NCBI GenBank assembly: GCA_934481325.1 | Contig: CAKSPL010000001.1 | Span: forward strand, 1-42,203 | From: an uncultured Eubacteriales bacterium | Lineage (GTDB): Bacteria; Bacillota; Clostridia; Oscillospirales; CAG-272 | Direction: 5' to 3' | Length of the DNA stretch: 42,203 nt | Shown: positions 10,395 to 41,360 of the stretch, one piece after another | Layout of the letters: each line of letters begins with the position of its first letter | How positions within the stretch are numbered: the first letter of the stretch is position 1 | Made by a program: the position numbers and the translations under genes | Notes under the pieces: generated by a model | Databases searched by the model: none | Seen by the model: only the letters and a program-made list of their open reading frames with translations | What the model was told of the DNA's origin: nothing

Positions 10395-10423
10395 ATTATA
10401 TCCGAAAGTTCCGTTTTTGTCAA
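10395..10423 (-). promoter_or_regulatory. Perfect-consensus SigA promoter for serC-serA
   Basis: Minus strand reads TTGACA (10423-10418), exactly 17 nt, TATAAT (10400-10395). The leader then contains hairpin GGGCAGG-TT-GCCTGCCC (about 10358-10374). Confidence 0.7.
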
Positions 10424-10483: not shown

Positions 10484-10525
10484 TCAAGAAAACGGGAAGG
10501 AACGCCCTTCGGCGCACTTCCCGTT
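10484..10525 (-). terminator. Intrinsic terminator ending the phage-derived operon
   Basis: Stem AACGGGAAG ... CTTCCCGTT (10491-10499 / 10517-10525) with an inner GCC-CTTC-GGC hairpin. On the minus strand it is followed by TTTTCTTGA. It begins 6 nt after the stop at 10531. Confidence 0.75.
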
Positions 10526-10530
10526 CCCGC

Positions 10531-10869
10531 TTACTTCGCGTTCACTTTTTTGGAAAAGGCAATGTCCTCCTCCACCTGTTTGCGGCATTCCTCGGCATCA
10601 AAGGGCAACCCCTGTTCGGCGGCGAAAACACTCAGCTTTTCCAGAACATACGAGAGCTTTTCCGCGGCACCGAAGCCCGGGATTTCTTCCGCCTCCATTT
10701 CAAACTGCCGCGCCGCCTCCAATATGCGGAGCCAGGCACGCACATCGCGCCCCTTTCCGGAGCGGATGTACTCACAAAGATTGTATGCAAGCCCCACAAG
10801 ATTGATGAGAATTCCGAGCAGGAGCGTAATTGCCTGCGGGTTTTCGGTGAACCATTTCAAAATCTGCAT
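10531..10869 (-). CDS. Putative phage holin (LL-H-family-like)
   Basis: 112 aa. One N-terminal TM (AITLLLGILINLVGLAY), then a charged helical tail (GAAEKLSYVLEKLSVFAAEQGLPFDAEECRKQVEE). This resembles LL-H-type holins from memory. It is the last gene of the operon and has a GAGGAAGAG RBS. Confidence 0.5.
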   Translation of the reverse strand: MQILKWFTENPQAITLLLGILINLVGLAYNLCEYIRSGKGRDVRAWLRILEAARQFEMEAEEIPGFGAAEKLSYVLEKLSVFAAEQGLPFDAEECRKQVEEDIAFSKKVNAK

Positions 10870-10930
10870 TTCTCTTCCTCACTTTCGGGAGAAAGGAGAA
10901 GCACCGGAGGGAAAAAGCAGAAAAAACGCG

Positions 10931-11272
10931 TTACAGCCTGCCGCCCTTTGTACGGAGAAACCATTTGGCAAAATCCCCGTATGCCTCGTTGAAAGCCGCG
11001 GCGGACATCTGATATGCCGTGGCATCCTTGGCGGCATAATCAATCATTTTCATCAGATATATCCAGTACACGCGGTCATAGGGTGCCGGGGCAAACAGGC
11101 GGAGTATTTGCGGCGTGTTCTCCCCGAATACCGGAATTTTTTCGGGTTCTCTGCCCGCAATCTCGGTCAGGATTCTGCCCTCCAGCTCCGAGAGCCAGCG
11201 CAGTTTGATGGACTGTGCCAGCTCATTCGGGCGCAGAGCATCCGCGGTCTGCAATACCTCTGCTATCGTCAT
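10931..11272 (-). CDS. Phage head-associated hypothetical protein (possible head-completion/connector protein)
   Basis: 113 aa. The ATG overlaps the upstream stop (ATGA at 11269-11272). Its position after the capsid gene suggests a connector role. No motif I can name. Confidence 0.45.
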   Translation of the reverse strand: MTIAEVLQTADALRPNELAQSIKLRWLSELEGRILTEIAGREPEKIPVFGENTPQILRLFAPAPYDRVYWIYLMKMIDYAAKDATAYQMSAAAFNEAYGDFAKWFLRTKGGRL

Positions 11273-11694
11273 ACCGCATCCCCCGCGGCGCGCCTTCTTG
11301 TCTCATCGGCAAAGCGAACCGCCTCACGCTCCATCAGCTCCGCCGTGCGCAGGTCCTGAATCTCCGACTGGTCGAGCAAAAGCGCGAATTTGCGGCGGAT
11401 GCGTGTCCAGACTCCGCGGCGGATCACGCAGTTTTTGCCGTTGATGGCAACGTACACATCATCCTTGTATTTTTCATTGTCCTTGAAAAGGCGCACCTCC
11501 ACATATTCGTTGAGATATGCCTCCTGGCGTTTGAGGAAGTCGCGGAATTGCCCCTTGTCCTCAAACAGCCGGCTTTTCTTTTCCGTCCCTTCCAATTCGG
11601 CAATCCGCGCCTCATACGCCGCCTGCATCTCCTCCATTTGCCGTTGCAGCTCGGCAAGGGTCGGCGGCTGTTGCCGCCCATTCTGTTTTTCCAT
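11269..11694 (-). CDS. Phage hypothetical protein with N-terminal coiled coil
   Basis: Start taken at ATG 11694 (MEKQNGRQQ...), which has AAAGGAGAAGT upstream, giving 141 aa. Coiled-coil-like LAELQRQMEEMQAAYEARIAELE, then VEVRLFKDNEKYKDDVYVAINGKNCVIRRG. Directly downstream of the capsid gene. Confidence 0.5.
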   Translation of the reverse strand: MEKQNGRQQPPTLAELQRQMEEMQAAYEARIAELEGTEKKSRLFEDKGQFRDFLKRQEAYLNEYVEVRLFKDNEKYKDDVYVAINGKNCVIRRGVWTRIRRKFALLLDQSEIQDLRTAELMEREAVRFADETRRRAAGDAV

Positions 11695-11770
11695 ACTTCT
11701 CCTTTCCGTGGCACCGCAGTCAGGGAGTTTACAAAACATCCCTGACCAGGTGCCGGGTTGTTATTCTACC

Positions 11771-13162
11771 TTAGTTTTCGCCCGCTTCAAAGGTGGACGC
11801 GGTCTCAATGCGCACCATAAATGCCTCTACCAGGCGCGCCGCCGCTTTGGTTGCCTTCCAGCCCACCGTGGCGCGCTGATTCAGCGGGTCGGCGGTGCCG
11901 GCGGAGCCAAGCTGTTTGACGATGTGCTGGAGTCCGCCGCCCTGCAGCTCGGTGGTACCGTAGGCGTTGTCGCCCATCACAAGCGTCACATACACGTCAC
12001 GCCCTGCAAGTCCCGCTTCACCGGGATACAGCATATCTCCCGCGGCGGTGGTCACTGCGGTACTGCCGATGCCGCCCGCAAGCAATTCGCGGTCAAAGTA
12101 CAGGTAGTTGTTGCCGGAAGCACTGTACACGGCACCGGTAACCACGGCATACTGCCAGGAGGACTCCGAAGCGTCAAAGAACAGCACGGAGCGACCCACC
12201 ATAGAGGGTGCCGCCTTTACGCCGTCTGCGGCGGTGCCGATTTTCAGGCGGTATTTGGAGCCTGTTCCGTAGCCTTCGGTTGCCGTACCCGCGGTACTCA
12301 GCGTCTCATAAGCACCCGCAAGGCAGGAAATCGTGCGGGAAACGGCGGTAAGATCGGGGGCATGAATCACCTTTGCCTCGGTGGATTCCACAAACCGAAC
12401 CCCTTCGATCATCCCGATCTCGCCCTCATACAGTGCCTTGGTATCGCTGTACTGATGCGGATATTTCCAGTTGGGATCGTTGGTCAGGTCATAGGCGCAA
12501 TCGGGGTGAATGATGCAGGCATAGGAGCCGTTGATCTTCTCCGCGTTCTGGTTTTTGAGGAAGCGGACGGCACGCTTGATACAGTCCACGCTCATATAGT
12601 GATTGCCGCTCGCCTCGCCGCCCACCAGCAGATACCGCGCGGGAACCGCATCGGCACCGTACTGCACGTTCGTACCGCCGCAAAGCACCTCACGGGTGAT
12701 GGTGTCCAGCGTTCTGCCCGCCTGAGAGCCGAGCAGCTTGGTTGCCATTACAAGGTTGTTGTCAATGGCGGAAAGCAACAGCAGGTCGGAAAGCTCCACA
12801 TACCCGCCGTACTGATGCACCGTTGCCTCCACGGAGCCCATATTCAGGGTCTGACCCGTAGGGGTCACACCCTCGGAAAGGGCAGAGGTGAGCTTGGGCA
12901 GCGGATCGTACTTGCGGAAACGGATGGTTTTGCCGCCGTGTTTCGGAATCGGATGCTTTTGCGCAAACTGATCGTGAATCAGATTCGGCTCCGCGTTGTC
13001 AATGAGGTAATCCGAGTAGTAAACGCGCATCTCCTCGGAGAGTCCCTCTCCCTCGGAAAAGGGCGCGTTGGTGCCGGTTGTGGCATCGGTCACACCGACC
13101 GTGGTGTTGACCGCTTCGCCCGCGCCGAACAGGCGCAGGTCAAGCATTTTTCCGTTTTTCAT
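11771..13162 (-). CDS. Major capsid protein, N4-gp56-like family (HK97 fold)
   Basis: Start at ATG 13162 (MKNGKMLDLRLFGAGE...), which has AGGAGA upstream, giving 463 aa. Blocks MRVYYSDYLIDNAEPNLIHDQFAQKHPIPKHGGKTIRFRKYDPLPK and LSEGVTPTG...HQYGGYVELSDL match my memory of this capsid family. Confidence 0.8.
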   Translation of the reverse strand: MKNGKMLDLRLFGAGEAVNTTVGVTDATTGTNAPFSEGEGLSEEMRVYYSDYLIDNAEPNLIHDQFAQKHPIPKHGGKTIRFRKYDPLPKLTSALSEGVTPTGQTLNMGSVEATVHQYGGYVELSDLLLLSAIDNNLVMATKLLGSQAGRTLDTITREVLCGGTNVQYGADAVPARYLLVGGEASGNHYMSVDCIKRAVRFLKNQNAEKINGSYACIIHPDCAYDLTNDPNWKYPHQYSDTKALYEGEIGMIEGVRFVESTEAKVIHAPDLTAVSRTISCLAGAYETLSTAGTATEGYGTGSKYRLKIGTAADGVKAAPSMVGRSVLFFDASESSWQYAVVTGAVYSASGNNYLYFDRELLAGGIGSTAVTTAAGDMLYPGEAGLAGRDVYVTLVMGDNAYGTTELQGGGLQHIVKQLGSAGTADPLNQRATVGWKATKAAARLVEAFMVRIETASTFEAGEN

Positions 13163-13184
13163 AAATCTCCTTTTTCTCTTCGGG

Positions 13185-13901
13185 TCAGAGTTCGATTCGC
13201 TCCCCCTGTGCCGCCCGCAATGCCACCGCGGCACGCTCGGCACGGGTCAGGCGCGAAACACCGGTACGGGAACCGGAATCCAGCGGGGAAAGCGCATTTT
13301 CCGCAGGGCGTATGCCTCTTGCGAGAATCGTTTCCGTCAGTGCCCGTTCCGTTTCGGCGCGGGCATCTGCCACGGCTCTTTCCACTGTCTCGCGGATGCG
13401 CCTGTCAAGCTCCGCCGCGGATTCCGTTTTTTCCGTTGCCGCCGGCACCGCCGCGTTCGCGGGTGCTGCCACCGGCTCTGTAACCGTTGTTTCTTCGGTC
13501 GGCTCCTTTGCCGTCGCCTCTGTCGACGCCGTCACTGCACTGTCCGCCCGGATGGCGTCCGGCAGTTTGCCGACCTCGCTCACCCCGTATCGTGCCGCCG
13601 CGGCATCCACCACGGCACGGGCAAGGTTCAGCTCCTCCAAAAGACCCTTCTGTTCTTTGAAACGCTTGGCAAATACCTCGTTGAAGTAGGCGGTAAACTC
13701 CTGTTTGTATTCCCCCTCCATCAGCGCACGGAATTTCTGTCGCGCTTCGCTTCGGTTCTTCCCGGCGTCGGAAGCTGCCTCTTCGCCCGCAGGTGCCGTG
13801 GCACCCTCATTTGCCGGCGGGATGATTTCCGGCGGTGTTTCCCCATCCCCTGTGGAACTGCCGAATAACCGCAGTCCCGGCAGATCTGCTGACTGTTTCA
13901 T
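13185..13901 (-). CDS. Phage scaffolding protein
   Basis: Start at ATG 13901 (MKQSADLPGLRLFGSS...), giving 238 aa. Ala/Glu-rich, predicted helical, with FRALMEGEYKQEFTAYFNEVFAKRFKEQ. Located between the protease and capsid genes. Confidence 0.7.
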   Translation of the reverse strand: MKQSADLPGLRLFGSSTGDGETPPEIIPPANEGATAPAGEEAASDAGKNRSEARQKFRALMEGEYKQEFTAYFNEVFAKRFKEQKGLLEELNLARAVVDAAAARYGVSEVGKLPDAIRADSAVTASTEATAKEPTEETTVTEPVAAPANAAVPAATEKTESAAELDRRIRETVERAVADARAETERALTETILARGIRPAENALSPLDSGSRTGVSRLTRAERAAVALRAAQGERIEL

Positions 13902-14275
13902 ATGCTCACCCTTTCGTGGCATCGGGCGGTTTTTTCACCGTCCTGCCGAATTATACCATACTGTTTCTTTTTTGTCGTCAACGATGCAAAAACCGTTACG
14001 TCCCGGGGGTAAATCTCCGCAATGTGGCAAAGCCCCCGCACCGTGGCGTCAAACGCGCCGCCAAGCCCCCCGCGGCAGGAGAGGAACAACCGCCCCGGCT
14101 CCGCCGAGTACCGCAAATGCCTGCAAGCGGGATTTTCCGCGGCAAACAGTAACAGTCCCTCACTCAGTGCGGAAACACCCGCGCACACCAGCTCCTTATC
14201 CGGCGAGACTTCGGCGTGCCCGGTAACATACAGCCGATAACGCCCGTCCTGCCGGTCGGCATACACTCGGATCAT
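13898..14275 (-). CDS. Prp-like (DUF464, ribosomal-processing) cysteine protease, phage-encoded
   Basis: 125 aa. MIRVY...YVTGHAEVSPDKELVCAGVSALSEG reproduces the Prp catalytic His (GHA) and Cys (VCAxxS) spacing. ATGA overlaps at both ends (14272-14275 and 13898-13901). Confidence 0.8.
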   Translation of the reverse strand: MIRVYADRQDGRYRLYVTGHAEVSPDKELVCAGVSALSEGLLLFAAENPACRHLRYSAEPGRLFLSCRGGLGGAFDATVRGLCHIAEIYPRDVTVFASLTTKKKQYGIIRQDGEKTARCHERVSI

Positions 14276-15966
14276 TGGTCGTCCTTTGCCTGCTCGGCAA
14301 GCCGCTTTGCCCCGGAAAACGCGGTGCGTATGGGGTCATATTCCTTTTTTTCGGATTTTCCGGAGGTCTCCCCTCCCAAGAAATCCGAAGGAATTTCCTC
14401 CCCGTTTTTCAGGCGGGCAACCAGCTTTTTCACCCCCGGAAAGTCCATACAATCCAGGAGAATCAGTGCCGCCTCCCGGTTGGCGGGGTCAAATACCCCC
14501 ATCCGGTACAACTCCTTGAGGTTGTCATTGGAGCTGACACGGGTAAAGGAATCCTGTTTTTCCGCCCGTACGTCAATGTCAAAAACAGGCACGCGGGAAA
14601 GCGGAAGCCCGGCGGAGGACACCCCCAGCGACCGCTCGCGGATTCTCACCCCCGAAAAGCTCACATAACGATAGCCCTCCTCGCCCATCACGCGGAAATA
14701 ACGCTCGCCGTCATAAAACTGCCGCACACATTCGATCACCAGTTGTACCAGCCGGACAAACGCCCGATAGGAGGTGGACACCACGTCCCGCACACACTTG
14801 CTTGCCGCCTCCTGCAATGCGGCGATTGCCGCCGCTGCGGTCACGCCGCTCTCGGAGCCGCCCTGCAACAGATTGCGGTTGAAGGTGGTTTCTTTCAACT
14901 CGTCTACCTTGGCTTTTTTCAGTTCCAGCCACATCGAATCCAGTGGCTCCACCGTAATCTGGCGCAAACGCTCCTCTCCGAGGTCGCCCTCCACCTCCAC
15001 GACACGGCGGGTGACATCGGTAAAGTCGTTTTCGTTTACCCCCGTGTTCTTTTTGCAGAAATACCGCACGCGGGTCGCCCAATCCATATATTCCATCAGA
15101 TTGCGATCCATCCGGTCAATGTAGGTTTGCGGGTCCTTCGCCATAGAAATCAGACCGAATCCGGTGCAGCTTTCCTCCATCGGATACATCACGTCCATCA
15201 CAAAGGGGTACTCCCCGTGTTCATACCAGCCCCGCGCAAAGCGGGGGTCGTTTTCGGTGGCAAACAGAACCGCATCCCCCGAAAATTTGCAGTAGTGAAG
15301 CACGGTTCTGCCGCCCGGCAGACGCTTTTTGTAGTACCAGTCCACCACCAGTACCCGCCCGTCGCTTCCTTCTATCTCCCCGAGACGCTCTCTGTCACAG
15401 TGCGGGAATTTCGCCAGCACGGCACTTTTTTCCGCCTCCTCGGTGTAAAACACCGCACGGGAGCTTTGCAGATTCCGCACGCCGGGTTCTATATAAAGCT
15501 GCATCGGGTCTACCCGCCGCACGTCAATATCCCCCAATCCGTTCTGCAATTCGCCGTTCCAGAACACCCCGTAAATGCAAAAGCCGTGCTTGAGCTTGGT
15601 CCACATATTGCGGGAATAGCACTCGGCAAATCCACTGCGCTCCAGTATCACCGGGATAATCTCGGACAATGCCTTTGCGTCCGCCTCATCCCCCGGCTCC
15701 CGCGCCAGACACACCGCCGTCGGAATATAATCCATCAGGTCGGCGTGCTTTTGCAGAACCGCGTTGAGCAACCACGCGGAAGAGGGGGAAAAGCACTCTT
15801 CCTCGCTGTTTCGGTGCGCCTTCGGGGTCATCCGCCCGCGAAACCATTTTTTCTCCTCACACAGTCGCCTTTCCACTTCGGCTCTGCCGTGGCGATAGGC
15901 GGTAAGCAGTTCCGTCGCGTGCCGCACCTCCGGCACGCCCACCGTGCTGTTGATTCTTTTCTTCAT
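14272..15966 (-). CDS. Phage portal protein
   Basis: Start at ATG 15966 (MKKRINST...) after AAAGGAGAAAAA, giving 564 aa. Its size and its position between the terminase and protease genes support the call. Family assignment needs an HMM search. Confidence 0.75.
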   Translation of the reverse strand: MKKRINSTVGVPEVRHATELLTAYRHGRAEVERRLCEEKKWFRGRMTPKAHRNSEEECFSPSSAWLLNAVLQKHADLMDYIPTAVCLAREPGDEADAKALSEIIPVILERSGFAECYSRNMWTKLKHGFCIYGVFWNGELQNGLGDIDVRRVDPMQLYIEPGVRNLQSSRAVFYTEEAEKSAVLAKFPHCDRERLGEIEGSDGRVLVVDWYYKKRLPGGRTVLHYCKFSGDAVLFATENDPRFARGWYEHGEYPFVMDVMYPMEESCTGFGLISMAKDPQTYIDRMDRNLMEYMDWATRVRYFCKKNTGVNENDFTDVTRRVVEVEGDLGEERLRQITVEPLDSMWLELKKAKVDELKETTFNRNLLQGGSESGVTAAAAIAALQEAASKCVRDVVSTSYRAFVRLVQLVIECVRQFYDGERYFRVMGEEGYRYVSFSGVRIRERSLGVSSAGLPLSRVPVFDIDVRAEKQDSFTRVSSNDNLKELYRMGVFDPANREAALILLDCMDFPGVKKLVARLKNGEEIPSDFLGGETSGKSEKKEYDPIRTAFSGAKRLAEQAKDDQ

Positions 15967-15977
15967 TTTTTCTCCTT

Positions 15978-17459
15978 TCACTCCCGGCTCTGCCGCTTTT
16001 CCATCGCGCTCCGATAGGTGCGGATGGGGCGATCCAACGGGTCATATGTGATCACTTCTTTTACCGCCGTTACCTCCGCGCGGGGCAACGGCACCATCAT
16101 ACAGAGGTAGCGTGTTTCGTCCGCAATATGATCCTCCATATCCGAATCCACATCTTCGGGCGATGTTTTGCTGTATTGCAGGGCGGGAACGGTGCGCAAA
16201 AAGTCGGTACAGGTGCGGAAAACATAAAGCATCGGCACCCCGGCGCGGTCAAAAATCAGCCGCTCGTGCAATTGCATCCATCCGGCAATGCGGCGGTTGT
16301 CGCCCGGTTCAAAATAAATGCCGTACCGTTCCCCCGTTTCCGCAACCGATTCTCCGCGTGACGCATCGAAAATCGCCGGGTCTGCCACCCCCACAATCCG
16401 CCTGCCCGAAAGAAACGGATGCTCCTTTTCCACCTGCGCGATTTTGGAAAAAATCTCCTGCGGGCTCCACCGCACCCCCACGTTTGCCTCACGCGGGGCG
16501 CAACCGTACAACTCCAGAATACGGTAAAGCCGCCCGTCTCCGTCCTTTGCCCACCACCCTACCGAAAACGGTTTGGCATAGCCAAAGTCAAAGGATCGGT
16601 AAAGCTGCCAACTGTCCGGCGGGCGGAACGGGTCAATAATATGGGTAAACCGACGGTCGGCATAGTGCGCGGGGTCATCGCGCAATTCCTCAAACACCTG
16701 CCCTTCAAACACGTTCCAATCCCCGTACAGGTGCGCTTTTTTCTTATGCTCCGGCAACGCCTCCAAGCGTTTGATATAAGCCGGGTCCGCCTGCATCAGC
16801 ACCTCGTTGTCGTATACGTTTGCGGGGATAAAGCAGTAGTCCTCCGGGTTCTCGCCCGTGCGGAACCGGCGGTCGATAAACAGCCGCTTAATGTAGGCGT
16901 GTCCCACTCCGCCCGGATTGCAGGTATAATACACGCGGGGGCGAAAATCGGTGCGTGTGGTGCGCAATGCCGTGCAGATGAATACCATCCACTCCTCCTT
17001 GAAATTGGTCGCCTCCTCAAAACCGATCACATCGTACTCCGCGCCCTGATATTGCAGAACGTCGCTGTCCGCATCGCAATAGCCGAGAACCAACCGCGAG
17101 CCGTTGGGAAAGAGAAATGCCCGGTCCTCCTTACGAAACACGGCATAACCCGCCAGGTCGTTCTGCAACGGCAGAATGTGATTTTCCCGCAATTGCGTCA
17201 GCGTGCGGCGCAATAACAGCAACCGCAGGGCAGGGTAGCGCATCGCCAGCATCACCATCTTGCGGCGAAGCGCATAAGACTTTCCGCCCCCGCGCGCCCC
17301 GCCGTAGGCGGTATAGCGCGCCGTGGAACGGAAAAACGCCTCCTGCCTCGGGTTCGGCACCTCGTGCCGCAGTTTATCGAAAATGAGTGCCTCGCGTGGC
17401 TTTTTATCGGTGGCTCCCACTCGCACCCGCCTCCCTTTCTTTGCCCGGAATGTTGCCAA
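15978..17459 (-). CDS. Terminase large subunit
   Basis: Walker A YGGARGGGKSYAL, Walker B-like YDVIGFEEA, and C-terminal nuclease-type DMEDHIADETRY. The track start is TTG 17459. A GTG 12 codons downstream follows GGGAGG and may be the true start. Confidence 0.85.
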   Translation of the reverse strand: MATFRAKKGRRVRVGATDKKPREALIFDKLRHEVPNPRQEAFFRSTARYTAYGGARGGGKSYALRRKMVMLAMRYPALRLLLLRRTLTQLRENHILPLQNDLAGYAVFRKEDRAFLFPNGSRLVLGYCDADSDVLQYQGAEYDVIGFEEATNFKEEWMVFICTALRTTRTDFRPRVYYTCNPGGVGHAYIKRLFIDRRFRTGENPEDYCFIPANVYDNEVLMQADPAYIKRLEALPEHKKKAHLYGDWNVFEGQVFEELRDDPAHYADRRFTHIIDPFRPPDSWQLYRSFDFGYAKPFSVGWWAKDGDGRLYRILELYGCAPREANVGVRWSPQEIFSKIAQVEKEHPFLSGRRIVGVADPAIFDASRGESVAETGERYGIYFEPGDNRRIAGWMQLHERLIFDRAGVPMLYVFRTCTDFLRTVPALQYSKTSPEDVDSDMEDHIADETRYLCMMVPLPRAEVTAVKEVITYDPLDRPIRTYRSAMEKRQSRE

Positions 17460-17482
17460 AACGCATCGCGTTCCGGGGGATA

Positions 17483-17725
17483 TTACTTACTCCACTCATC
17501 CAATACCCCCTCAAAGGTCACACTGCCGGGTACGCCGGAGACAGGTGCCTCGCCCGACAGCACCCGACCGAGAATCTCCTCCGCCGCTTTGAAACGGAGC
17601 TCGGGCTTTGCCTCCTCATCCTTCATCAGGCAAACCAGAAACCGCACCGCGTCCGCCCCCGATGCCCGCAACAGTGCCTGTAAGTCCGTTTCAGTCTTTT
17701 TCGCCGCCGTCGTTTTCCGAGGCAT
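17483..17725 (-). CDS. Small phage protein, candidate terminase small subunit
   Basis: Start at ATG 17725 (MPRKTTAAKK...) after AAGGAGAG, giving 80 aa. The call rests on its position immediately upstream of TerL and on the basic N-terminus. No diagnostic motif. Confidence 0.35.
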   Translation of the reverse strand: MPRKTTAAKKTETDLQALLRASGADAVRFLVCLMKDEEAKPELRFKAAEEILGRVLSGEAPVSGVPGSVTFEGVLDEWSK

Positions 17726-18014
17726 CGGTTCTCTCCTTGTTTTCCGGCAGCTTCCGCGGCACAAACCGGATCAGGTAAGCATCCCCCGCGTCCTCAATTT
17801 CGGGAGAAAACCGCTCCAGTCCCGCGCGGATTTCGCTTTTTTGAATCCGGAGCTCCGGGTTTTTTTCGCACAGTCTTTCCAGTGTCAGCTTCAGAAACGC
17901 CGCAAGCAACGCCACTTCTTCCTCGCGCCCCGCAAGCGCATCACCGAGACTGCGGATGTACCTGTCCCGCCACGCTACTGCATATTCCAGCTTTTTTTCG
18001 TTGTTTTCCGGCAT
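17691..18014 (-). CDS. Phage hypothetical protein
   Basis: Start at ATG 18014 (MPENNEKK...) after AAAGGAGA, giving 107 aa. The 3' end overlaps the next gene by 35 nt. Confidence 0.45.
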   Translation of the reverse strand: MPENNEKKLEYAVAWRDRYIRSLGDALAGREEEVALLAAFLKLTLERLCEKNPELRIQKSEIRAGLERFSPEIEDAGDAYLIRFVPRKLPENKERTDASENDGGEKD

Positions 18015-18015
18015 C

Positions 18016-18210
18016 TCAGAATCTCCTTTCATAATAGCCGTCCATCACGTTTTTGAAGGGGCAGCGTTCAAAATCCTTCGGATGGGCGCAATAGGAATAC
18101 AAAAATCCCCGTCTTGCTTCCTTATCCGGAAATTTCAGCTTTGCGCACTCGCAATAGGTCACCCCCGCCTTTTCGTATTGGTAATACGGACACGCACCTG
18201 CAATCGGCAT
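18016..18210 (-). CDS. Cys-rich 64-aa protein, first gene of the leftward operon
   Basis: AAGGAGGAAGTT-ATG. MPIAGACPYYQYEKAGVTYCECAKLKFPDKEARRGFLYSYCAHPKDFERCPF has five Cys and one His, spaced like a metal-binding knuckle. Confidence 0.5.
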   Translation of the reverse strand: MPIAGACPYYQYEKAGVTYCECAKLKFPDKEARRGFLYSYCAHPKDFERCPFKNVMDGYYERRF

Positions 18211-18256
18211 AACTTCCTCCTTGTTTCTTTTTCGGGACGTTTGTTTTCCCGTTTAT

Positions 18257-18276
18257 TCGTCCTATTTTTGGGACGA
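18257..18276. promoter_or_regulatory. Operator-like palindrome O1
   Basis: TCGTCC-tatttttg-GGACGA: perfect 6-bp inverted arms with an 8-nt spacer, preceded by AT. It lies in the leader of the leftward operon. Confidence 0.5.
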
Positions 18277-18329
18277 GCAAGGTGCAACTCATTCTGCATC
18301 TCCGGAATACAATCAGAATTGCACTCTAT

Positions 18330-18349
18330 TCGTCCTAATTCTGGAACGA
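18330..18349. promoter_or_regulatory. Operator-like palindrome O2
   Basis: TCGTCC-taattctg-GAACGA. Same left arm, same spacer length and same terminal TG as O1. It lies 5-24 nt downstream of the -10 of the leftward promoter, over the expected transcription start. Confidence 0.5.
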
Positions 18350-18353
18350 CATT

Positions 18354-18382
18354 AGCATACACCATTTTCTCCCGTTTGTCAA
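18354..18382 (-). promoter_or_regulatory. Leftward (head-operon) promoter
   Basis: Minus strand reads TTGACA (18382-18377), 17 nt, TATGCT (18359-18354). Confidence 0.6.
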
Positions 18383-18418
18383 GTACGATTTCCAAAAAGT
18401 TATGATGAAATTGTAAAT

Positions 18419-18438
18419 TCGTTCCGTTTTTGATACGA
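18419..18438. promoter_or_regulatory. Operator-like site O3 (degenerate)
   Basis: TCGTTC-cgtttttg-ATACGA. Same architecture as O1/O2. It ends 5 nt upstream of the -35 of the rightward promoter. Confidence 0.4.
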
Positions 18439-18442
18439 CCGC

Positions 18443-18471
18443 TTGACTTTTCCCTCCCGCGTTGCTACAAT
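18443..18471 (+). promoter_or_regulatory. Rightward promoter for the XRE/ImmA-like genes (and possibly glpK)
   Basis: TTGACT (18443-18448), 17 nt, TGC-TACAAT (-10 at 18466-18471). Confidence 0.6.
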
Positions 18472-18514
18472 AATATTGAAGAAAAGACTGCTATGGCAGG
18501 GAAAGAGGCAACAA

Positions 18515-18826
18515 ATGAATGTTTCCGACCGCATCCGCGCGCAAATGGACCGACAGGGGCTGTCCTATGGGGAGCTTGCCCTTCGCACGGGGCTGACGAA
18601 GTCTGCGGTACACCGTTATGCCACCGGGCAGACCGACAAGGTGCCCACCGAGGCATTGGAACGGTTGGCACTTGCCCTCGGCGTAACGCCTGCCTATCTC
18701 ACCGGGTGGGAAACGGAATCCCCCCACACGCTCGCGGCACATTTTGAAGGGGAATCGTTCAGTGATGAGGAGCTGCGGGAAATCGAAGATTTTGTGCGGT
18801 TTGTGAAGTCCAAACGCCCACACTGA
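18515..18826 (+). CDS. XRE-family HTH repressor (ImmR/cI-like)
   Basis: Start at ATG 18515 (MNVSDRIRAQMDRQGLSYGELALRTGLTKSAVHRYATGQ...), giving 103 aa. Canonical XRE helix-turn-helix. Divergent from the phage operon. Confidence 0.85.
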   Translation: MNVSDRIRAQMDRQGLSYGELALRTGLTKSAVHRYATGQTDKVPTEALERLALALGVTPAYLTGWETESPHTLAAHFEGESFSDEELREIEDFVRFVKSKRPH

Positions 18827-18848
18827 AAGGAAACTTTGAAAGGGAGCT

Positions 18849-19331
18849 ATGTACGAGCAACTTTTGGATGAAGCCAAGGAAAAAGGCATTACCGTGATTG
18901 AAAAATACCCGTTTACCTCGCCCCGCATCCGCGGGCTTTGCTGTGATGATACCATTGCCATCAGCGCGCAGGTGGACACCGAAGCGGAGCGCACGGTCAT
19001 CCTTTGCGAGGAGCTGACGCACGCCACGCATTCGGCAGGCGATATCCTCACCGACAGCCGGATGGAACGGCGTGTGCGGGAGCGGATTTTTGACCGTCTG
19101 GTCGGCACTGCGGGGCTGGTGCGTGCCTGCCTCGCCGGGTGCCGCACTCCGTGGGAAATTGCCGACTTTTGCGGCGTTCCGGAGGCATTTCTGCACGCTC
19201 TGCTTGCCAATTACAGAGAGCGGTTTGACCCGCGCATTATCGTCACACTTCCGGAAGGGACCTTTGCGCTGACCCTGCAACCGACCCTTTGCGTTTCCAA
19301 ACTCAAAAAAGGAAAAGGAGAAACGGTATGA
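18849..19331 (+). CDS. ImmA/IrrE-like (COG2856-type) putative anti-repressor metalloprotease
   Basis: 160 aa directly after the XRE gene. The layout ...GLCCDDTIAISAQVDTEAERTVILCEELTHATHS... matches ImmA-like proteins, but the HEXXH position reads CEELTH, so the first His is absent. Confidence 0.6.
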   Translation: MYEQLLDEAKEKGITVIEKYPFTSPRIRGLCCDDTIAISAQVDTEAERTVILCEELTHATHSAGDILTDSRMERRVRERIFDRLVGTAGLVRACLAGCRTPWEIADFCGVPEAFLHALLANYRERFDPRIIVTLPEGTFALTLQPTLCVSKLKKGKGETV

Positions 19332-21516: not shown

Positions 21517-21639
21517 TCAATTCATTGCCTCAAAATCGTCGTTGGCGATGTCATCTTCGGACACCAGCAGAATATCCTTCGTGGTGAAAACCAAAAGTTC
21601 CGCCATAGGAGGCATATAGATTGTTGCTTTGTTCTTCAT
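21517..21639 (-). CDS. Unannotated 40-codon ORF downstream of the GLUG gene
   Basis: Below the ORF-track size cut-off. AAGGAGGAGAGATTT-ATG (ATG 21639-21637), 19 nt after the stop of the giant gene. Own translation: MKNKATIYMPPMAELLVFTTKDILLVSEDDIANDDFEAMN, stop TGA at 21519-21517, followed by the terminators. Confidence 0.45.
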   Translation of the reverse strand: MKNKATIYMPPMAELLVFTTKDILLVSEDDIANDDFEAMN

Positions 21640-21658: not shown

Positions 21659-24600
21659 TTAGATAAAGCCCTTCAGAATTTCGCGGGCAGATTCCGAATA
21701 CCGGCTGTAAACGGTGTTTCCGCCTGCATCGGTGGTCGCATATCTGTATTCGTCACTCTGCGCGGTCTTTGTGTCGGCAAGAGCCGCCTCGGCAACCTGG
21801 CGGATGGAACGCACGTTGTTCACACCGTCAAACTCGCTGTAATAGTAGGTGACCGCACCCTCTGCATCCACAACCTTCACATAGGAAATTGCCGCAAATG
21901 CACGGGTCAGGTTGGCTTTTTGGATGTTGGTGAGAGCCGCGCGAATCTCTACATTGCCGTTCTCATCCTCAATCAAACCGGCATCGGCTTTGATATCCTT
22001 ATACCTGACCGTGACGTCCTTGAGTGCGCTTGCCGCGTCCAGAGCTTCCATCGTAAACGCATCCGCGCACACCACATAGTCCATCGGAGCAATCACGGTG
22101 CCGTAGCTGATGCTACCGGTAGCACCTGCCAATTCCTTGGCAGCCGCAATCTTATCCGCCGTAATGGTGGAGATGAAGCGAAGACCGGTGGAGCCTGCGG
22201 TCATACGAACCTGTGCGCCGGGTTTGGTGGTCATCGCGTACTTGCTGTCGGTCGCACCGGAGAACGTCCACACCTTGTAGGTTGCGCCCTCAAAGTTGCA
22301 GGTGCCGGCATAGGTACCCACGGCAACGTCGCCGTGCGAGTCGGTCGGGTGATAGCCGCTTGCCGTTGTGATATCGGCACAGCCGTTGGTGTTCACAAAG
22401 TACAACTGAGCCGCACTTGCCAGGAATTTACCGCCGGTGATGTTCAGGGAAGCGCAGGTATTGTTCTTGAAAACGACCTGCTGGCTTCCGGTTTTTTGGT
22501 TGACAAGAGTACCGCCGCTGATGTTCACAGTGCCATAGGTACCAGAACCGCCGCAACGGACAACAGCCCCCCACACCTGCGTGTTACCGGGAGTGGCAAT
22601 CAGCACACCGCCCATAATATTGAGCGTGCCGTTGGTTTCCGTAGTAATGGTATTATCGGAGCCGCTTTCATTCTTGGTTTTACCGCCAAGCGCGCGTGCA
22701 ACGCACATACCGTTGTTGGTAAATCTGCCGCCGAACATATTGAGCGTACCTCTATCTGCACGAATCAGAGCGTCCGCCTGATCGATACCCTCAAAGGTGC
22801 CGCCGTAGATGTTGATTACTGCATTGTCGCCCTGGGTCATTACGGCTTCGCCGCGGGAATTATAGGAGCCGTCCTCAACGTTCAGAACGCCGTTCTTGCA
22901 AAGAATCAGATTGCCGGTTGCGTTCTTGATCACGCTTTCACTGCCCTTGATTTCCACAAGAGAAGGCGTCTCGCAATACAGGCCGATAGCGTAAGTGTTG
23001 CTGCGGATACGACCGTTCTCGTTTGCGGAGCCGACATAGAGCTTCACGTTGGTAAAGGTCAGGTTCAGCACGGAGGAACGGCGGTTCAGCCCTGTGCGCA
23101 CGCCGGCACCCTGTGCATATACCGTCAGATTGTTCACGTTGGCGGTGCCACTGCCGCTGAGGTTGAGCATATACTTGCCCGTATTCGCGGCATAGAAGTT
23201 GTAGCCGTTGCCGTCAAAGGTGTAGGAAACACCGTTGGAAACGATGGTTTCCGGAGTAGCCGCATAGTAATTTGCCAACAGCTTCACGGTTGCACCCTCG
23301 GTGAGGTACATACTGACCTCACTCAGAGAATCAACGGTTGCCACAAGCTCGTTTGCGGCATTGTACACCGCAACCTTGTTTGCCTCGTTGGGTTCCACAC
23401 CAAGGAGCTTCGCATACGCATAGCCAAGCTCACCGTTCGTGACAGGGTTGATACCCGCGGCAAGCAGTACGTTGGCAGTTACGGTGTTGTCCATCGCAAA
23501 GTCGGTAATTGCCACCGTACCCGTGCTGTTTCCGCCAAGGGCAACCGTGGTACCGCCGTTACCGGTTTGCGCATCATACATCGCGCTCCCGGATTTGACC
23601 AGGTTCCCGGAGATGTTGGCTTTTGCCGTCAAAGGGGAAGTACCGGTGCCATAGTACAAGTGGGTTGCCGTTTTTGCCGTAACCGTGGCAACAATCACGT
23701 TGTTCTTGATGGTTGCGACATTCGTATTGGCATATCCGCAAAGCGCACCGGCGCGGGCACCCGTACTGGTAACGGTGCCGGCAATAATGCAGTTCTGAAT
23801 ATCAATGCCGACTTTATCGCTTGCCCACTGATAGCCGACCAGTCCGCCTACATCGGCAGTGCCACAGGAGATGGCACCGGTATTGACGCAGTAGGAGTAA
23901 ACAATGCTGCTACCGCTGGTTGCGTGCAACTCACCCGCCATACCGCCGGCGCGGGTTTTGCCGGTAACGGAGCCGGTATTGATGCAATTCCGGAACGAAA
24001 AGACCTTGCAACCGGAGTCCTGGTGGTGGTTCGCCATCCCCGCCGCGACAAGCGTGGTGGAGGTAACCGAGCCGGTGTTGATGCACGCGGTGAGGGCTAC
24101 GCCCTTGGCACTGTCACCGACGATACCGCCTGCATAGCGAACGCTTACGATTTCGCCGCCGTTGTAGCACCCCTGCGCATAAACCGCAGCCGTGCCGTTA
24201 TAGCCCTGGATACCGCCCGCGCTGGCAAGATCCGCGGTGCCGGTGCTGGTGATTTTGCCGGTGTTTACGCAATCCCGATACATCGGGTTGGCGGAAGCTG
24301 AAGTTTGCGAGCTACCCACGATACCGCCTGCCTGATGCACACTGGATACCGCGCCGCTGTTGGAGCAGTTGATATAAGTGGTGTAGTTACCGTCGGAATA
24401 ACCGCAAAGACCGCCCGCAGCAGTACTGCCGGTAGCGGCTTCAATCGCACCGGTGTTGGTGCAGTTTTCAAACCGCGCCAAAGCACCGTTTGTCGTGCCG
24501 ATGATACCGCCCGCATAGTTCTTGGAGGTGGTAACACTTGCAGTGTTATGGATGTTGATAAAGGTTGCCCCACCGAATCTGGCAAGCGCACCCACCGAAT

Positions 24601-27013
24601 CGGTATGAGTGACGGAGCCTGCAATCGTCAGATTGCGGATTACCGCGCCTGCGGCAAAGGCTGCAAATGCGGGTTTGCCGTTTACGGTGATGGTGTGGTT
24701 GTCCCCGTCAAAGGTGCCGAGGAAATATCCGGAGCGGCTTTCGCTCAGCGTGATATTTGCCGTCAGCTTGTAGTTGCCCACAAGGCTCATTGCCAGGAAT
24801 TCTTCCGCGGTGGAAATATTCGTTACCGTGTCACGAGGGGTGTTGACCAGAACGGTGCCCGACATTACGGTAAACGGATCCGCATCCGCGGCAAAGCGAT
24901 AATCGGTAGCAATCTCCACAGGCGTGCCTGTGCCGGTTTTTGCCTTGTTGTTAATCATCGGGCCCGTAAAGGTCGCTACCACATAGTTGCGTTTGTAATA
25001 GCCCGCACCCATCACGGCATCGTTGTTCCAGCCCAGTGCGTTCAGCACCGAGGAGCCGTTCGCATTTTTGCCGGTGGGGAACACCGTGGAGGTAAGCGTA
25101 CCTGCCAGCACGTTGTCGGTAAACAAGCCATAGGTGCTGTTGGTATAGCCGAATACATAGCCTGCGTTGCCGGCGGCGGTCACGTCGCCGGTGTTGATGC
25201 AGTAGGTTGCCATCAGATAAGCCTGCGAGCCGGAGCCAAACTGATAACCCACAATTCCGCCTGCGTACAGCTGTGTATGGATATTGGAAGCGGAAGCGGC
25301 ATTCGCCAGTTTGGATTCGCCGGACGTCACCTTGCCGGTGTTGATACAGCCGGTTACCCGCGTGACACCCTTGTAAGCGCCATTTCCGGAGAGGGCAATG
25401 ATACCGCCTGCGATACCGCCCTCCTGCTTGGTCACTTTGCCGTCGGTCAGGGTGTACGACGCCTTGGCGGTTACGTTACCGTCATTGCGGCAGTCGGTTA
25501 CGGTCAGGGGGCAGACGACGGTGCCTGCGATACCGCCCGCAGCGATACCGACTGTATCCGGCGAATCCGTACGGGGACCCACGTTGCCCTTATTGGTGCA
25601 ACGGATAATCGTTACGGGAGTTTGCGAATATGTCACAATCCCGGCAACGTTACCGGTATAGGAGGTTACGGCACCCTCATTGAGGCAATCCGAAATGACA
25701 ACGGAAACATCCAGTGCCAAATTTCCAATTGTGTCCGCACGGGCAACAATGCCGCCGGCGTAGTTGTATCGCGAGGTTACCGCGCCATAGTTTTCACAGC
25801 CCTGAACGGTGATTTCCGTGTTGTTGATGCACCCGGCGATACCGCCGTTCTGTCCGGTACCCTCCACATCCGCGTAGTTCTTACAGCCGGTAATGAGCGT
25901 TTTGTTCGTGGAATTGCCGACCATACCGCCCGCGCGTTTTTGATTGTATTCATTTACGGTATTGGTGTTTATCGCCTTGCCGGCATAGACCTTACCGGTG
26001 AGCTCGTTGGTGCAGTTTTCAATGGTAAGCTGCACGATGGAGTTGCCGATCATACCACCCGCATTATTATTATTCGCCGTAATGACCCCGGTATTGGTGC
26101 AACCCACCAAACGGACGGCAACGGTACCGGAGGTGTTGTTGGTATAGGCGATGATACCGCCCGCGTGATCTGCGGAGGTTACCGCGCCCTCGTTGCGGCA
26201 GTTATAGAACAGAGCCACGCCGTTGGGGCATTCCACACCGGCGGCAATGCCTGCGGCACTGCTTGCTTCCGTGGAAACCTCGCCCTTGTTGACGCAGTTG
26301 ATGAAAACGGCTTCACTGTCCTTATCGGCGGATACCAGCGAGGTAATGCCGCCGGAGGTATCGTTGCCGAAAATCTTACCTTCATTGGTGCAACGCTCAA
26401 AAATTGTGTAGCCGGCGGTGCGCCCTGCGATACCTGCGGCGCGCTTTGTAAAGCCGGCGGTACCGTCATAGTCCACCACGTTCGCCTTATTGAGAATGTT
26501 GAAGAAGTTGCAGTCAGACGAATTGCCGCACGCCACCGCACCGGTGTTGCCGGCAGAAACGGTTGCTATCCCTTCCTTCGTACTCTCAACCGTCAGGTTT
26601 TTGATGGTTGCGCCCTGCGGTGCTTCAAACAGCGGCACCGTAGTGGTTACGGTATAGCCGTTGCCGTCAAATACGCCGGCAAAGCCTGCATAGGTCGCGC
26701 TGATGGTGATGTTTGCCGTAAGATAATACTTACCATTGGGATCCATCTTGGCAAAATCCTCACCACTGCTGATTGCGGTGCCGACAGGAGTATACCCCGC
26801 ACCGGGGTTGCCTACCGGAACCGAATCATCAAGTGCCGGATTTCCGGTATTGATCTTGATTTCGCCCGCGCCGTTCGGCTGTTCTGCCGTTCCCTCGGAT
26901 GTCGTAACACCCTCTACCGATACTGCAATAGCACCGGCAGGAATGCCGGATACCACCATCAGAACCGTGAGAACGAGACACAGCCATACAGCAAGTCTGT
27001 TTTTCTTGTTCAT
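21659..27013 (-). CDS. Giant secreted GLUG-repeat / parallel beta-helix surface protein (putative adhesin)
   Basis: Start at ATG 27013 (MNKKNRLAVWLCLVLTVLMVVSGIPAGAIA, a signal peptide) after AAGGAGGAAAAT, giving 1784 aa. About 20 repeats of C-x-N-x-G...(A)GG(I/M/L)(V/A/I)G, e.g. YAGGIVGY and DVGGLVGY. Later a GTLNMFGG / GTLNIMGG / VNISGGT beta-helix region. Confidence 0.8.
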   Translation of the reverse strand: MNKKNRLAVWLCLVLTVLMVVSGIPAGAIAVSVEGVTTSEGTAEQPNGAGEIKINTGNPALDDSVPVGNPGAGYTPVGTAISSGEDFAKMDPNGKYYLTANITISATYAGFAGVFDGNGYTVTTTVPLFEAPQGATIKNLTVESTKEGIATVSAGNTGAVACGNSSDCNFFNILNKANVVDYDGTAGFTKRAAGIAGRTAGYTIFERCTNEGKIFGNDTSGGITSLVSADKDSEAVFINCVNKGEVSTEASSAAGIAAGVECPNGVALFYNCRNEGAVTSADHAGGIIAYTNNTSGTVAVRLVGCTNTGVITANNNNAGGMIGNSIVQLTIENCTNELTGKVYAGKAINTNTVNEYNQKRAGGMVGNSTNKTLITGCKNYADVEGTGQNGGIAGCINNTEITVQGCENYGAVTSRYNYAGGIVARADTIGNLALDVSVVISDCLNEGAVTSYTGNVAGIVTYSQTPVTIIRCTNKGNVGPRTDSPDTVGIAAGGIAGTVVCPLTVTDCRNDGNVTAKASYTLTDGKVTKQEGGIAGGIIALSGNGAYKGVTRVTGCINTGKVTSGESKLANAASASNIHTQLYAGGIVGYQFGSGSQAYLMATYCINTGDVTAAGNAGYVFGYTNSTYGLFTDNVLAGTLTSTVFPTGKNANGSSVLNALGWNNDAVMGAGYYKRNYVVATFTGPMINNKAKTGTGTPVEIATDYRFAADADPFTVMSGTVLVNTPRDTVTNISTAEEFLAMSLVGNYKLTANITLSESRSGYFLGTFDGDNHTITVNGKPAFAAFAAGAVIRNLTIAGSVTHTDSVGALARFGGATFINIHNTASVTTSKNYAGGIIGTTNGALARFENCTNTGAIEAATGSTAAGGLCGYSDGNYTTYINCSNSGAVSSVHQAGGIVGSSQTSASANPMYRDCVNTGKITSTGTADLASAGGIQGYNGTAAVYAQGCYNGGEIVSVRYAGGIVGDSAKGVALTACINTGSVTSTTLVAAGMANHHQDSGCKVFSFRNCINTGSVTGKTRAGGMAGELHATSGSSIVYSYCVNTGAISCGTADVGGLVGYQWASDKVGIDIQNCIIAGTVTSTGARAGALCGYANTNVATIKNNVIVATVTAKTATHLYYGTGTSPLTAKANISGNLVKSGSAMYDAQTGNGGTTVALGGNSTGTVAITDFAMDNTVTANVLLAAGINPVTNGELGYAYAKLLGVEPNEANKVAVYNAANELVATVDSLSEVSMYLTEGATVKLLANYYAATPETIVSNGVSYTFDGNGYNFYAANTGKYMLNLSGSGTANVNNLTVYAQGAGVRTGLNRRSSVLNLTFTNVKLYVGSANENGRIRSNTYAIGLYCETPSLVEIKGSESVIKNATGNLILCKNGVLNVEDGSYNSRGEAVMTQGDNAVINIYGGTFEGIDQADALIRADRGTLNMFGGRFTNNGMCVARALGGKTKNESGSDNTITTETNGTLNIMGGVLIATPGNTQVWGAVVRCGGSGTYGTVNISGGTLVNQKTGSQQVVFKNNTCASLNITGGKFLASAAQLYFVNTNGCADITTASGYHPTDSHGDVAVGTYAGTCNFEGATYKVWTFSGATDSKYAMTTKPGAQVRMTAGSTGLRFISTITADKIAAAKELAGATGSISYGTVIAPMDYVVCADAFTMEALDAASALKDVTVRYKDIKADAGLIEDENGNVEIRAALTNIQKANLTRAFAAISYVKVVDAEGAVTYYYSEFDGVNNVRSIRQVAEAALADTKTAQSDEYRYATTDAGGNTVYSRYSESAREILKGFI

Positions 27014-27094
27014 ATTTTCCTCCTTGAAATAAAATAACAGGGTTGAAATGAAAAGGTGCGCGAAAAATTTCCAAAGCACCGGTTTTCCGTTTTT

Positions 27095-28930: not shown

Positions 28931-28945
28931 TCTTCAATCCCCCTC

Positions 28946-29938: not shown

Positions 29939-29956
29939 TTCGGCTCCTCCCTTCCT

Positions 29957-36768: not shown

Positions 36769-36769
36769 A

Positions 36770-37705: not shown

Positions 37706-37741
37706 TTGCTCAAATCTCCTTTATCGTAGCGTTCTGTCCGC

Positions 37742-41236: not shown

Positions 41237-41360
41237 ATTTCCCCTCCTTAGGATTCCGGCGGCGGTCAAACGCCGCCTTCCGTTGGTTGCAACGGCGCGC
41301 AAAGACCCATCGCGCACCGCCGCCGACGCCCCGTCACCGGGTCATCTTGATTTACGCCCT

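Follow-up and report, generated by a model that had tools for sequence, protein, structure and literature searches.

A conserved phage-head operon beside glpK in uncultured gut Clostridia: a candidate packaging locus of gene-transfer-agent kind

A head and packaging operon between serC and glpK

The window analysed here is a full NCBI contig of 42,203 bp (CAKSPL010000001.1) from a metagenome-assembled genome (MAG) of an uncultured Clostridia bacterium. It carries a compact phage-derived module, in which eleven uninterrupted open reading frames (ORFs) of head, packaging and neck type run on the minus strand from 18210 to 10531, between serC and a divergent pair of genes encoding an XRE-family repressor and an ImmA-like protein. 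This pair abuts glpK, giving a locus of 8.85 kb, and the remainder of the window consists of housekeeping genes. A first-pass annotation, made from the sequence alone, had described eleven intact frames with three ATGA start/stop overlaps, closed by a terminator that is followed by the serC promoter. This layout was confirmed: all eleven ORFs are present and none is interrupted, the overlaps lie at 14272, 13898 (the scaffold start and Prp stop) and 11269, and the hairpin and promoter are in place at 10496-10510 and 10395-10423. The Shine-Dalgarno site that it placed before each gene is found at the shorter starts of all genes, but not at the TTG start listed for the terminase large subunit (TerL). 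Family and profile searches of the proteins of the 42-kb contig bore out its claim that tail, integrase, replication and endolysin genes are lacking, and scans of the window for tRNAs, Rfam families and att-like flanking repeats were all negative. The genes of the module and its borders are as follows.

10395-10423: serC promoter, matching the consensus at 12/12 positions; the next feature after the terminator
10496-10510, minus strand: terminator-like hairpin and T-run (GAAGGGCGTTCCTTC + CCGTTTTCTT), about 20 nt past the g11 stop, at the distal end of the operon
10531-10869, minus strand: g11, 112 aa, with an N-terminal hydrophobic transmembrane-like segment and a conserved C-terminal domain
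10931-11272, minus strand: g10, 113 aa, predicted four-helix neck protein, adaptor-like or an N-terminal tail-fibre anchor domain
11269-11694, minus strand: g9, 141 aa, with a coiled-coil N-terminus and a highly conserved C-terminal domain of ~75 aa
11771-13162, minus strand: major capsid protein, ~463 aa, N4-gp56 family, with a variable insertion domain
13185-13901, minus strand: scaffolding protein, 238 aa from the ATG at 13901, between protease and capsid
13898-14275, minus strand: Prp-like cysteine protease for head maturation, 125 aa
14272-15981, minus strand: portal of P22/podovirus type, likely start 15966
15978-17459, minus strand: TerL, 493 aa
17483-17725, minus strand: g3, ~80 aa, resembling a terminase small subunit (TerS), immediately upstream of TerL; a Shine-Dalgarno site precedes the 80-aa start
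17691-18014, minus strand: g2, ~107 aa, the least conserved gene of the module
18016-18210, minus strand: g1, 64 aa, Cys-rich, the first gene of the operon
18515-18826, plus strand: XRE-family repressor, 103 aa, CapH/ImmR-like
18849-19331, plus strand: ImmA/IrrE-like putative metalloprotease, 160 aa, with a variant EELTH motif

Conservation, selection and inheritance

We sought relatives of the module in a genome scan with one genome per GTDB species and found 79 loci with a related capsid. At 31 of these, from about 30 MAGs (human, goat, sheep and deer gut), the same XRE/ImmA-like pair and the same head genes lie in the same order beside glpK. Three IMG/VR 'viral' contigs are fragments of this same chromosomal arrangement, and a further NCBI contig of 269 kb, with 65% capsid identity, shares long-range synteny with the window (thrS-tyrS-aroK-glpK, the module, then serC-serA...prfB-transglutaminase). 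In a collection of 5.8 billion proteins clustered at 90% identity, 101 of the best 120 capsid clusters were of this type. The 31 loci, the three fragments and the further contig are all tail-less, consisting of head and packaging genes, and four of them add a single putative nozzle gene. A complete prophage, which the first-pass annotation had envisaged at this position in close relatives, was found at none of the 31 genome loci, nor in the three IMG/VR fragments or the further NCBI contig.

Each gene is full length in each locus that covers it, with no pseudogenes and no frameshifts; apparent internal stops were alignments that overran the true gene ends. The ratio of non-synonymous to synonymous substitution rates (dN/dS; Nei-Gojobori, close species pairs) was 0.000-0.045 for the capsid core, 0.02-0.08 for TerL, 0.05-0.13 for the portal and 0.00-0.45 for the small ORFs, as compared with 0.06-0.11 for glpK and 0.03-0.09 for serC in the flanks. 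Purifying selection on the module genes equals or exceeds that on the neighbouring housekeeping genes, and the capsid core has values below those of the housekeeping genes. Two further signs by which the first-pass annotation had proposed to recognise a neutrally evolving derivative, frameshifts in sister strains and dN/dS near 1, were likewise not seen, with no frameshift found and dN/dS far below 1. Its description of a maintained capsid-production unit rather than a decaying stump agrees with the intact frames, the low dN/dS and the conserved promoter and operators.

The head genes of the closest pairs have dS values of 0.3-1.0, of the same order as those of the flanks, which argues against recent horizontal spread; between most species, synonymous sites have reached saturation. 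The distances measured for TerL and the portal are correlated with those for glpK (r ~0.73, Mantel p = 0.0005), GC content at third codon positions is 0.684 in module and host alike, and relative synonymous codon usage correlates at 0.94-0.97. About 30 species share the module at the glpK locus by vertical inheritance. One pair of loci from roe deer caecum, L003 and L004 (RGIG3899 and RGIG4068, separate species representatives), showed dN = dS = 0 except for one non-synonymous difference in g1; this near-identity suggests a shared contig or a binning duplicate.

The regulatory switch

The ~300-bp spacer between XRE and g1 holds two face-to-face sigma-70-type promoters and an operator array.

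18220-18438: operator array, with 23-nt palindromes TATTCGTCC-N7-GGRACGA at 18254-18276, 18327-18349 and 18416-18438
18354-18382, minus strand: head-operon promoter, TTGACA-17-TATGCT, with an extended TGTG before the -10 hexamer in the alignment
18443-18471, plus strand: promoter of XRE, the ImmA-like gene and glpK, TTGACT-17-TACAAT

The near-consensus head promoter covered by operator-like palindromes that the first-pass annotation had reported is present, with three copies of the palindrome and a degenerate fourth at ~18220-18240, immediately before the g1 Shine-Dalgarno site; the consensus across copies is TCGTYCC-N6/7-GGRACGA. Operator 2 starts about 5 nt downstream of the -10 hexamer of the head promoter, and operator 3 lies about 5 nt upstream of the -35 hexamer of the XRE promoter. 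In orthologues the head promoter is conserved as CTTGACAAA ... GTGTATGCT. Thirteen other loci have the strict operator motif in their XRE-g1 spacer, and in 723 kb of more distant loci it had 0 matches. A relaxed scan allowing up to two mismatches found at least one site in 23 of 24 other loci, with the aligned blocks conserved.

The XRE protein matches PF01381 at 2.8e-11 and, over its full length, PADLOC capH at 2.1e-13; its median identity across 25 loci is 81% and its dN/dS 0.02-0.06. Its most likely start is 18515 (103 aa), which replaces the TTG start of a 127-aa ORF given by the first-pass annotation. The sole match of the ImmA-like protein (dN/dS 0.04-0.10) is to phrog_87 'metallo-protease' at 6e-18, with no match to PF06114, NCBIfam or PADLOC capP. 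In the window and in 23/23 aligned orthologues it reads C/G-EELTH-A-x-H, with glutamate for the first His of the HEXXH of M78 peptidases. The earlier label 'ImmA-like' thus holds as far as the phrog_87 match goes and fails at the catalytic motif, where EELTH replaces HEXXH. The gene is under strong purifying selection despite EELTH.

The operon is divergent from these two genes, as had been described, and the ImmA-like stop and glpK start overlap in an ATGA at 19328-19331, so glpK is apparently co-transcribed with XRE and the ImmA-like gene and is possibly translationally coupled. The adjacency of the ImmA-like gene and glpK is kept in all orthologues that cover the junction. An XRE helix-turn-helix (HTH) protein with an adjoining ImmA-like gene, divergent from an operon with operators at its promoter, is the layout of the ImmR/ImmA and CapH/CapP types; the canonical HEXXH zinc-binding motif expected of the protease of such pairs was not found here. 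Like ImmR/ImmA (the integrative and conjugative element (ICE) ICEBs1, phi105) and CapH/CapP (associated with the cyclic-oligonucleotide-based antiphage signalling system, CBASS), the switch consists of a small XRE repressor followed by an ImmA/IrrE-like protein, divergent, with operators that flank and follow the promoter. Unlike them, its partner protein has EELTH, and its cargo is a phage head operon, where theirs is an ICE, a complete phage or an immune effector.

Head and packaging proteins

TerL matches PF03237/PF04466, and phrog_979 at 1e-47. Across 25 loci 263 of its 493 positions are invariant, including Walker A GARGGGKS, Walker B-like DVIGFEE and long stretches that we assigned by eye to a candidate nuclease domain. 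The portal matches PF16510 P22_portal at 8.7e-22 and phrog_156 at 6.4e-55, with 167 invariant positions in 25 loci. The Prp-like protease matches PF04327 at 1.2e-6 and phrog_4478 at 9e-12, and its orthologues keep the Prp-type dyad context GHA / C-A-x-V-S-A-L. For the capsid, NCBIfam TIGR04387 'N4-gp56 family' scored 288 bits against a cut-off of 60, and phrog_1357 matched at 4.5e-84. The scaffold, which matches phrog_13908 at 1.5e-15, evolves fast yet is intact in 27 loci. The remaining packaging gene, g3, matches phrog_15261 at 7e-8 and, weakly, the TerS family phrog_641 (0.003), covering profile positions 64-120 of 162 only. From its sequence it appears to encode a small TerS-like protein that would have no space for an N-terminal DNA-binding domain.

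The capsid carries an insertion domain at about residues 301-405 (numbering of the 490-aa ORF; roughly 12029-12343). Across 31 loci the core is 90-100% conserved and the insertion 61-69%. The insertion has a dN/dS of 0.04-0.59 and evolves 10-15x faster than the core. The assembly of one MAG breaks precisely at this domain (L027/L029). The insertion presumably lies at the capsid surface, and diversifying pressure may act on it.

Small proteins of the operon

Searches of Pfam, PHROGs and NCBIfam gave no family match for g1 or g2. The latter was detectable by tblastn in 12 loci only, at 25-56% identity. In g1, by comparison, 27/64 positions are invariant and dN/dS in close pairs is 0.00-0.16; a homologue (a92) is also the first gene in related modules with an S24 repressor. 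The third small gene, g9, matches phrog_15239 at 6.5e-21, has 49 invariant positions and is found in every group of relatives, where its place is always right behind the capsid gene. Profile searches of g9, g10 and g11 against the PDB returned nothing significant, and a single-sequence AlphaFold2 (AF2) model of g9 was unusable, with a predicted local distance difference test score (pLDDT) of 60. No hhalign comparison of g9 and g10 profiles with the three small post-capsid ORFs of Bacillus phage Page was significant (best g9-Page_7, E = 0.034).

The g10 protein matches phrog_12105 at 4e-25, and its AF2 model is a four-helix domain with a pLDDT of 94.6. In BFVD this model matched gut podovirus proteins labelled 'tail fiber', in their N-terminal domains (E 2e-8 to 3e-5, template modelling scores 0.82-0.92). 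Against the PDB, Foldseek gave no significant E-value, and the matches were enriched for the podovirus adaptors Sf6 gp7, SU10 and KHP30. In related phages the domain forms the N-terminus of fibre-like proteins of 359 aa and larger. These fold matches and the fusion to fibre-like C-termini point to a neck or tail-anchor protein; as modelled, g10 would be a single adaptor-like domain, not a tail. The first-pass annotation had proposed that profile searches might reveal tail or neck functions among the small ORFs, and the fold of g10 is the neck or tail-anchor function that emerged, with no tail found.

The last gene, g11, is confined to the modules of group 1, the window's own group, and is retained in every one of them, with an invariant EAAR..E..AE...AEKL.YVL and a dN/dS of 0.02-0.20 in close pairs. 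It had been called holin-like. In favour of that label are its one N-terminal transmembrane-like segment and sub-threshold hits to PF09682 Holin_LLH (E ~0.03, 5/12 orthologues); no match to Pfam or PHROGs was found at 0.01, so that the label is a weak one.

Related modules and phages

Capsid relatives at ~60% identity ('group 2') were considered as ordinary prophages, which was ruled out: they are compact chromosomal modules with host flanks conserved across species. Two sister families (L100, 3898-14048; also L030-L048, L064, L066 and L075) carry a LexA/CI-type repressor (HTH and Peptidase_S24) instead of the XRE/ImmA-like pair, and one of them ends with a 549-aa nozzle-like gene of phrog_511. 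The existence of two sister head-operon families under a LexA/CI-type repressor suggests that domesticated podovirus heads are general in gut Clostridia. The members of group 3, such as L058, resemble genuine phages, with replication initiator, fibre, endolysin and holin genes.

Bacillus phage Page and uncultured gut podoviruses share with the module the left-arm order TerS, TerL, portal, scaffold, an N4-gp56-type capsid and three small ORFs, which in these phages precede the tail genes. They differ in being complete phages with tail, lysis and replication modules, and their capsid identity to the module is ~38%. Faecal virome contigs (MT83xxxx) were also considered as evidence of packaging and set aside, since they are pieces of more distant relatives (34-55% identity) and lack any terminal overlap.

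Comparison with FpGTA and other capsid-producing systems

The kind of element considered here has been known since the report of FpGTA, the gene transfer agent (GTA) of Faecalibacterium prausnitzii (Nat Commun 2026;17:2046, PMC12946183). Its operon I comprises ten ORFs: it opens with a small TerS that has no DNA-binding domain, after which come, in this order, TerL, portal, 'Prp', the N4-gp56 capsid, a small ORF, the adaptor, the nozzle and additional structural genes. A second operon 125 kb away holds fibre, receptor-binding protein, holin and endolysin genes (PMC12946183). FpGTA particles measure ~40 nm, have no identifiable tails and contain 8.4-8.9 kb of random host DNA; 7/12 Faecalibacterium strains are without the tail/lysis locus (PMC12946183). 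GTA-type packaging was also reported for several uncultured Oscillospirales, where the locus was not identified; no FpGTA homologue was reported outside Faecalibacterium and the regulator was not described (PMC12946183).

When set beside the annotations of RCH50847-RCH50852 (Supplementary Data 2, PMC12946183), the module agrees in gene families and in their order as far as the adaptor, including the unusual Prp-like gene between portal and capsid, and g10 stands at the operon position of the FpGTA 'Adaptor (7sp4)'. Both systems belong to Oscillospirales gut hosts, are built of podovirus-type parts without integrase or replication genes, have no tail-fibre and lysis functions in the head operon, and are chromosomal and near-ubiquitous in the host clade. 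Unlike operon I, which runs on to a nozzle, the module in the window ends at the adaptor-like g10 and the holin-like g11; there is no gene between g11 and the serC promoter, so an FpGTA-like nozzle at the operon end is absent from the window. The module further differs in its divergent XRE/ImmA-like switch with palindromic operators and in its host clade. The packaged length in FpGTA, set against the 8.85 kb of the window locus, is an indirect hint only. The sister families with LexA/CI-type repressors may be closer to FpGTA operon I.

GTAs of the RcGTA type are alike in being domesticated head and packaging clusters with vertical inheritance, purifying selection, a TerS without a DNA-binding domain and scattered accessory genes (general knowledge and PMC12946183). 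They are unlike the module in that they are siphovirus-like, with an HK97-type capsid, tail genes in the main cluster and no sequence relationship to it, and in that they are under host regulation (CtrA/GafA, quorum sensing) rather than a phage-type repressor/protease pair. Phage-inducible chromosomal islands that form capsids (cf-PICIs) resemble the module in encoding their own capsid, portal, protease and terminase without a tail, under repressor control. They differ from it in having integrase, AlpA and replication genes, att sites and cross-species mobility, and in depending on a helper phage for induction and tails.

A probably domesticated head operon

Our combined findings suggest, with a probability of roughly 0.55, that the module is a domesticated, podovirus-derived, GTA-like head and packaging operon of the FpGTA kind, chromosomally fixed in uncultured gut Clostridia/Oscillospiraceae. 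A domesticated GTA-like or capsid-release system was one of three readings offered by the first-pass annotation, and it is the one that we favour, with FpGTA as its precedent (PMC12946183). As in GTAs, we found a phage-derived structural and packaging cluster without integration, replication or lysogeny-maintenance modules, in syntenic vertical inheritance and under purifying selection. The hallmarks of cf-PICIs or other satellites (integrase, att and replication; variable sites and near-identical copies across species) were not found, nor were those of defective prophages (pseudogenes, relaxed selection, sporadic distribution).

By this reading, the XRE repressor would occupy three or four operators of the form TCGTYCC-N6/7-GGRACGA, placed on either side of the head promoter's -10 region and beyond it. 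A signal passing through the ImmA/CapP-like partner, most likely DNA damage by analogy with ImmR/ImmA and CapH/CapP, would inactivate the repressor, upon which the 11-gene operon would be transcribed. Portal, scaffold and N4-gp56-type capsid would form procapsids, to be matured by the Prp-like protease, and the small TerS, lacking a DNA-binding domain, would act with TerL to fill the heads with headfuls of host DNA. The adaptor-like g10 may then cap the portal, and g11 may permeabilise the membrane. Functions for particle completion and release are probably encoded elsewhere in the genome, by analogy with FpGTA operon II; a truly tail-less particle is a live alternative, given the repeated loss of tail-proximal genes.

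The distal end and the evidence against a transfer agent

A number of observations weigh against this interpretation. Nozzle, fibre, receptor-binding and endolysin genes were not found within the 42-kb contig, and tail and lysis genes were also not found in the 10-kb flanks of the orthologues examined. The link to FpGTA consists of family names and gene order, not of an alignment. A short TerS also occurs in related bona fide phages and is therefore not a mark of domestication, and the ImmA-like protein is without the canonical HEXXH.

The remaining points concern the distal end of the operon, its only variable part. A phrog_511 protein of ~550 aa, a putative nozzle that appeared propeller-like by eye (repeated LF...VY...G stretches), is present in 4 loci only (L001, L011, L014 and L017). 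After g11, 23 orthologues have an extra gene of ~148 aa (146-149 aa; for example L010 12745-13191, L014 12787-13236 and L097 12694-13134), which is absent from the window. Its product, whose N-terminal domain is conserved (YRGYTE.KSYGWD) and whose coiled-coil C-terminus varies, had no family match and could be a needle/plug-like protein or that of a host gene. The g10 gene is deleted in L024, as seen by ORF inspection, and in L025 and L065 there is neither a tblastn match to g10 nor space for it between g9 and g11. Such repeated loss of the nozzle-like, 148-aa and g10 genes would be unexpected were a tail essential. The head genes of the g10-less L024-L025 pair are still strongly constrained. 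Some loci have a 65-aa ORF between g9 and g10, and the window and its closest relative, L015, belong to the most reduced forms. The genes that make up the clade-wide invariant core are XRE, the ImmA-like gene, g1, TerS, TerL, portal, Prp, scaffold, capsid, g9 and g11.

Alternative explanations

The strongest of the alternatives, though an unlikely one, is that the operon is a capsid machine that works without a tail, for which heads, DNA packaging and g11 suffice. It might be an abortive or decoy system, triggered by DNA damage or infection, in which DNA is packaged or cut and the cell dies, or it might export capsid-protected, nuclease-resistant DNA without injection. In either case nozzle, needle-like and adaptor genes would decay as no longer needed, and nozzle-like, 148-aa and even g10 genes have indeed been lost in separate lineages while selection on the head genes has not relaxed. 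The regulator pair also resembles CapH/CapP, a pair that controls anti-phage systems. The tail-less appearance of FpGTA particles and the Faecalibacterium strains that lack the tail/lysis locus (PMC12946183) fit the same idea. However, PADLOC matched none of the structural or small proteins of the module, only XRE (capH and, more weakly, RmrA), and defence systems are usually patchy and mobile rather than syntenic across some 30 species. The tail genes may also simply lie elsewhere in the genome. Moreover, P22-like podovirus heads without an adaptor, nozzle or plug lose their DNA, which counts against a machine made of heads alone.

Less probable again is a helper-dependent capsid producer, a fixed analogue of the cf-PICIs, whose heads would be completed by nozzle and fibre proteins of a co-resident or superinfecting podovirus. 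The module does have head and packaging genes without tail genes, the modelled adaptor or fibre-anchor fold of g10 could dock foreign tail proteins, and gut Clostridia also harbour related phages of podovirus type whose gene sets are compatible (group 3, such as L058). Nonetheless, there is no integrase, replication gene or att site, and the strictly vertical, co-diverging and codon-ameliorated history of the module is the opposite of that of a mobile satellite. The genome scan found no second related capsid locus in group-1 MAGs, which are incomplete. Podovirus tails, in addition, assemble stepwise on the portal and are not preformed, making tail theft harder. The satellite borrowing tails that the first-pass annotation had put forward is thus disfavoured, the module being immobile, vertically inherited and fully ameliorated, with no related prophage-type capsid found in the same MAGs.

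An inert prophage deletion remnant that has not yet decayed, the third of the earlier readings (there a clean deletion remnant), would account for the many missing phage functions and for a gene order equal to the left arm of podoviruses such as Page, but it is highly improbable and is refuted by the comparative data: 31 intact orthologous loci, dN/dS far below 1, a conserved promoter and operators and saturated synonymous divergence.

Significance of the locus

Long reads from gut virus-like particles have revealed many uncultured Oscillospirales that pack random, short fragments of their own chromosome, and in gut Oscillospirales the responsible packaging locus is known for Faecalibacterium only (PMC12946183). 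The module and its ~30 orthologues provide a concrete and strongly conserved candidate packaging locus in another clade. What is new relative to FpGTA is this second clade, sampled far more widely and with the chromosomal position exactly conserved, the defined XRE/ImmA-like operator switch, a capsid core under tighter constraint than the housekeeping genes next to the module, and a natural gradient of tail-gene loss. The promoter-operator-repressor switch is directly testable, and the series of variants lacking the nozzle, the needle-like gene or the adaptor bears on whether podovirus-type 'GTAs' need a tail.

Other features of the window

Beyond glpK, a 1,819-aa protein with no Pfam match is encoded at 21659-27118 on the minus strand. 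It is followed by a 40-aa acidic ORF with a strong Shine-Dalgarno site (21517-21639, minus strand), and about 700 bp of non-coding DNA separate this pair from glpK. The interval 27905-33682 holds ABC-transporter permease genes and a gene for a large DUF5696 protein. A similarly organised neighbouring interval, 35893-41317, has permease genes and a gene for a 1,191-aa protein with a solute-binding domain; the two clusters look like paralogous glycan-utilisation loci. Near the contig end, at 41866-42041, lies a tandem array of 6.8 copies of the 26-nt unit CCTCTCTTGCCTTTCGCCCGCCGTTT, with 85% matches.

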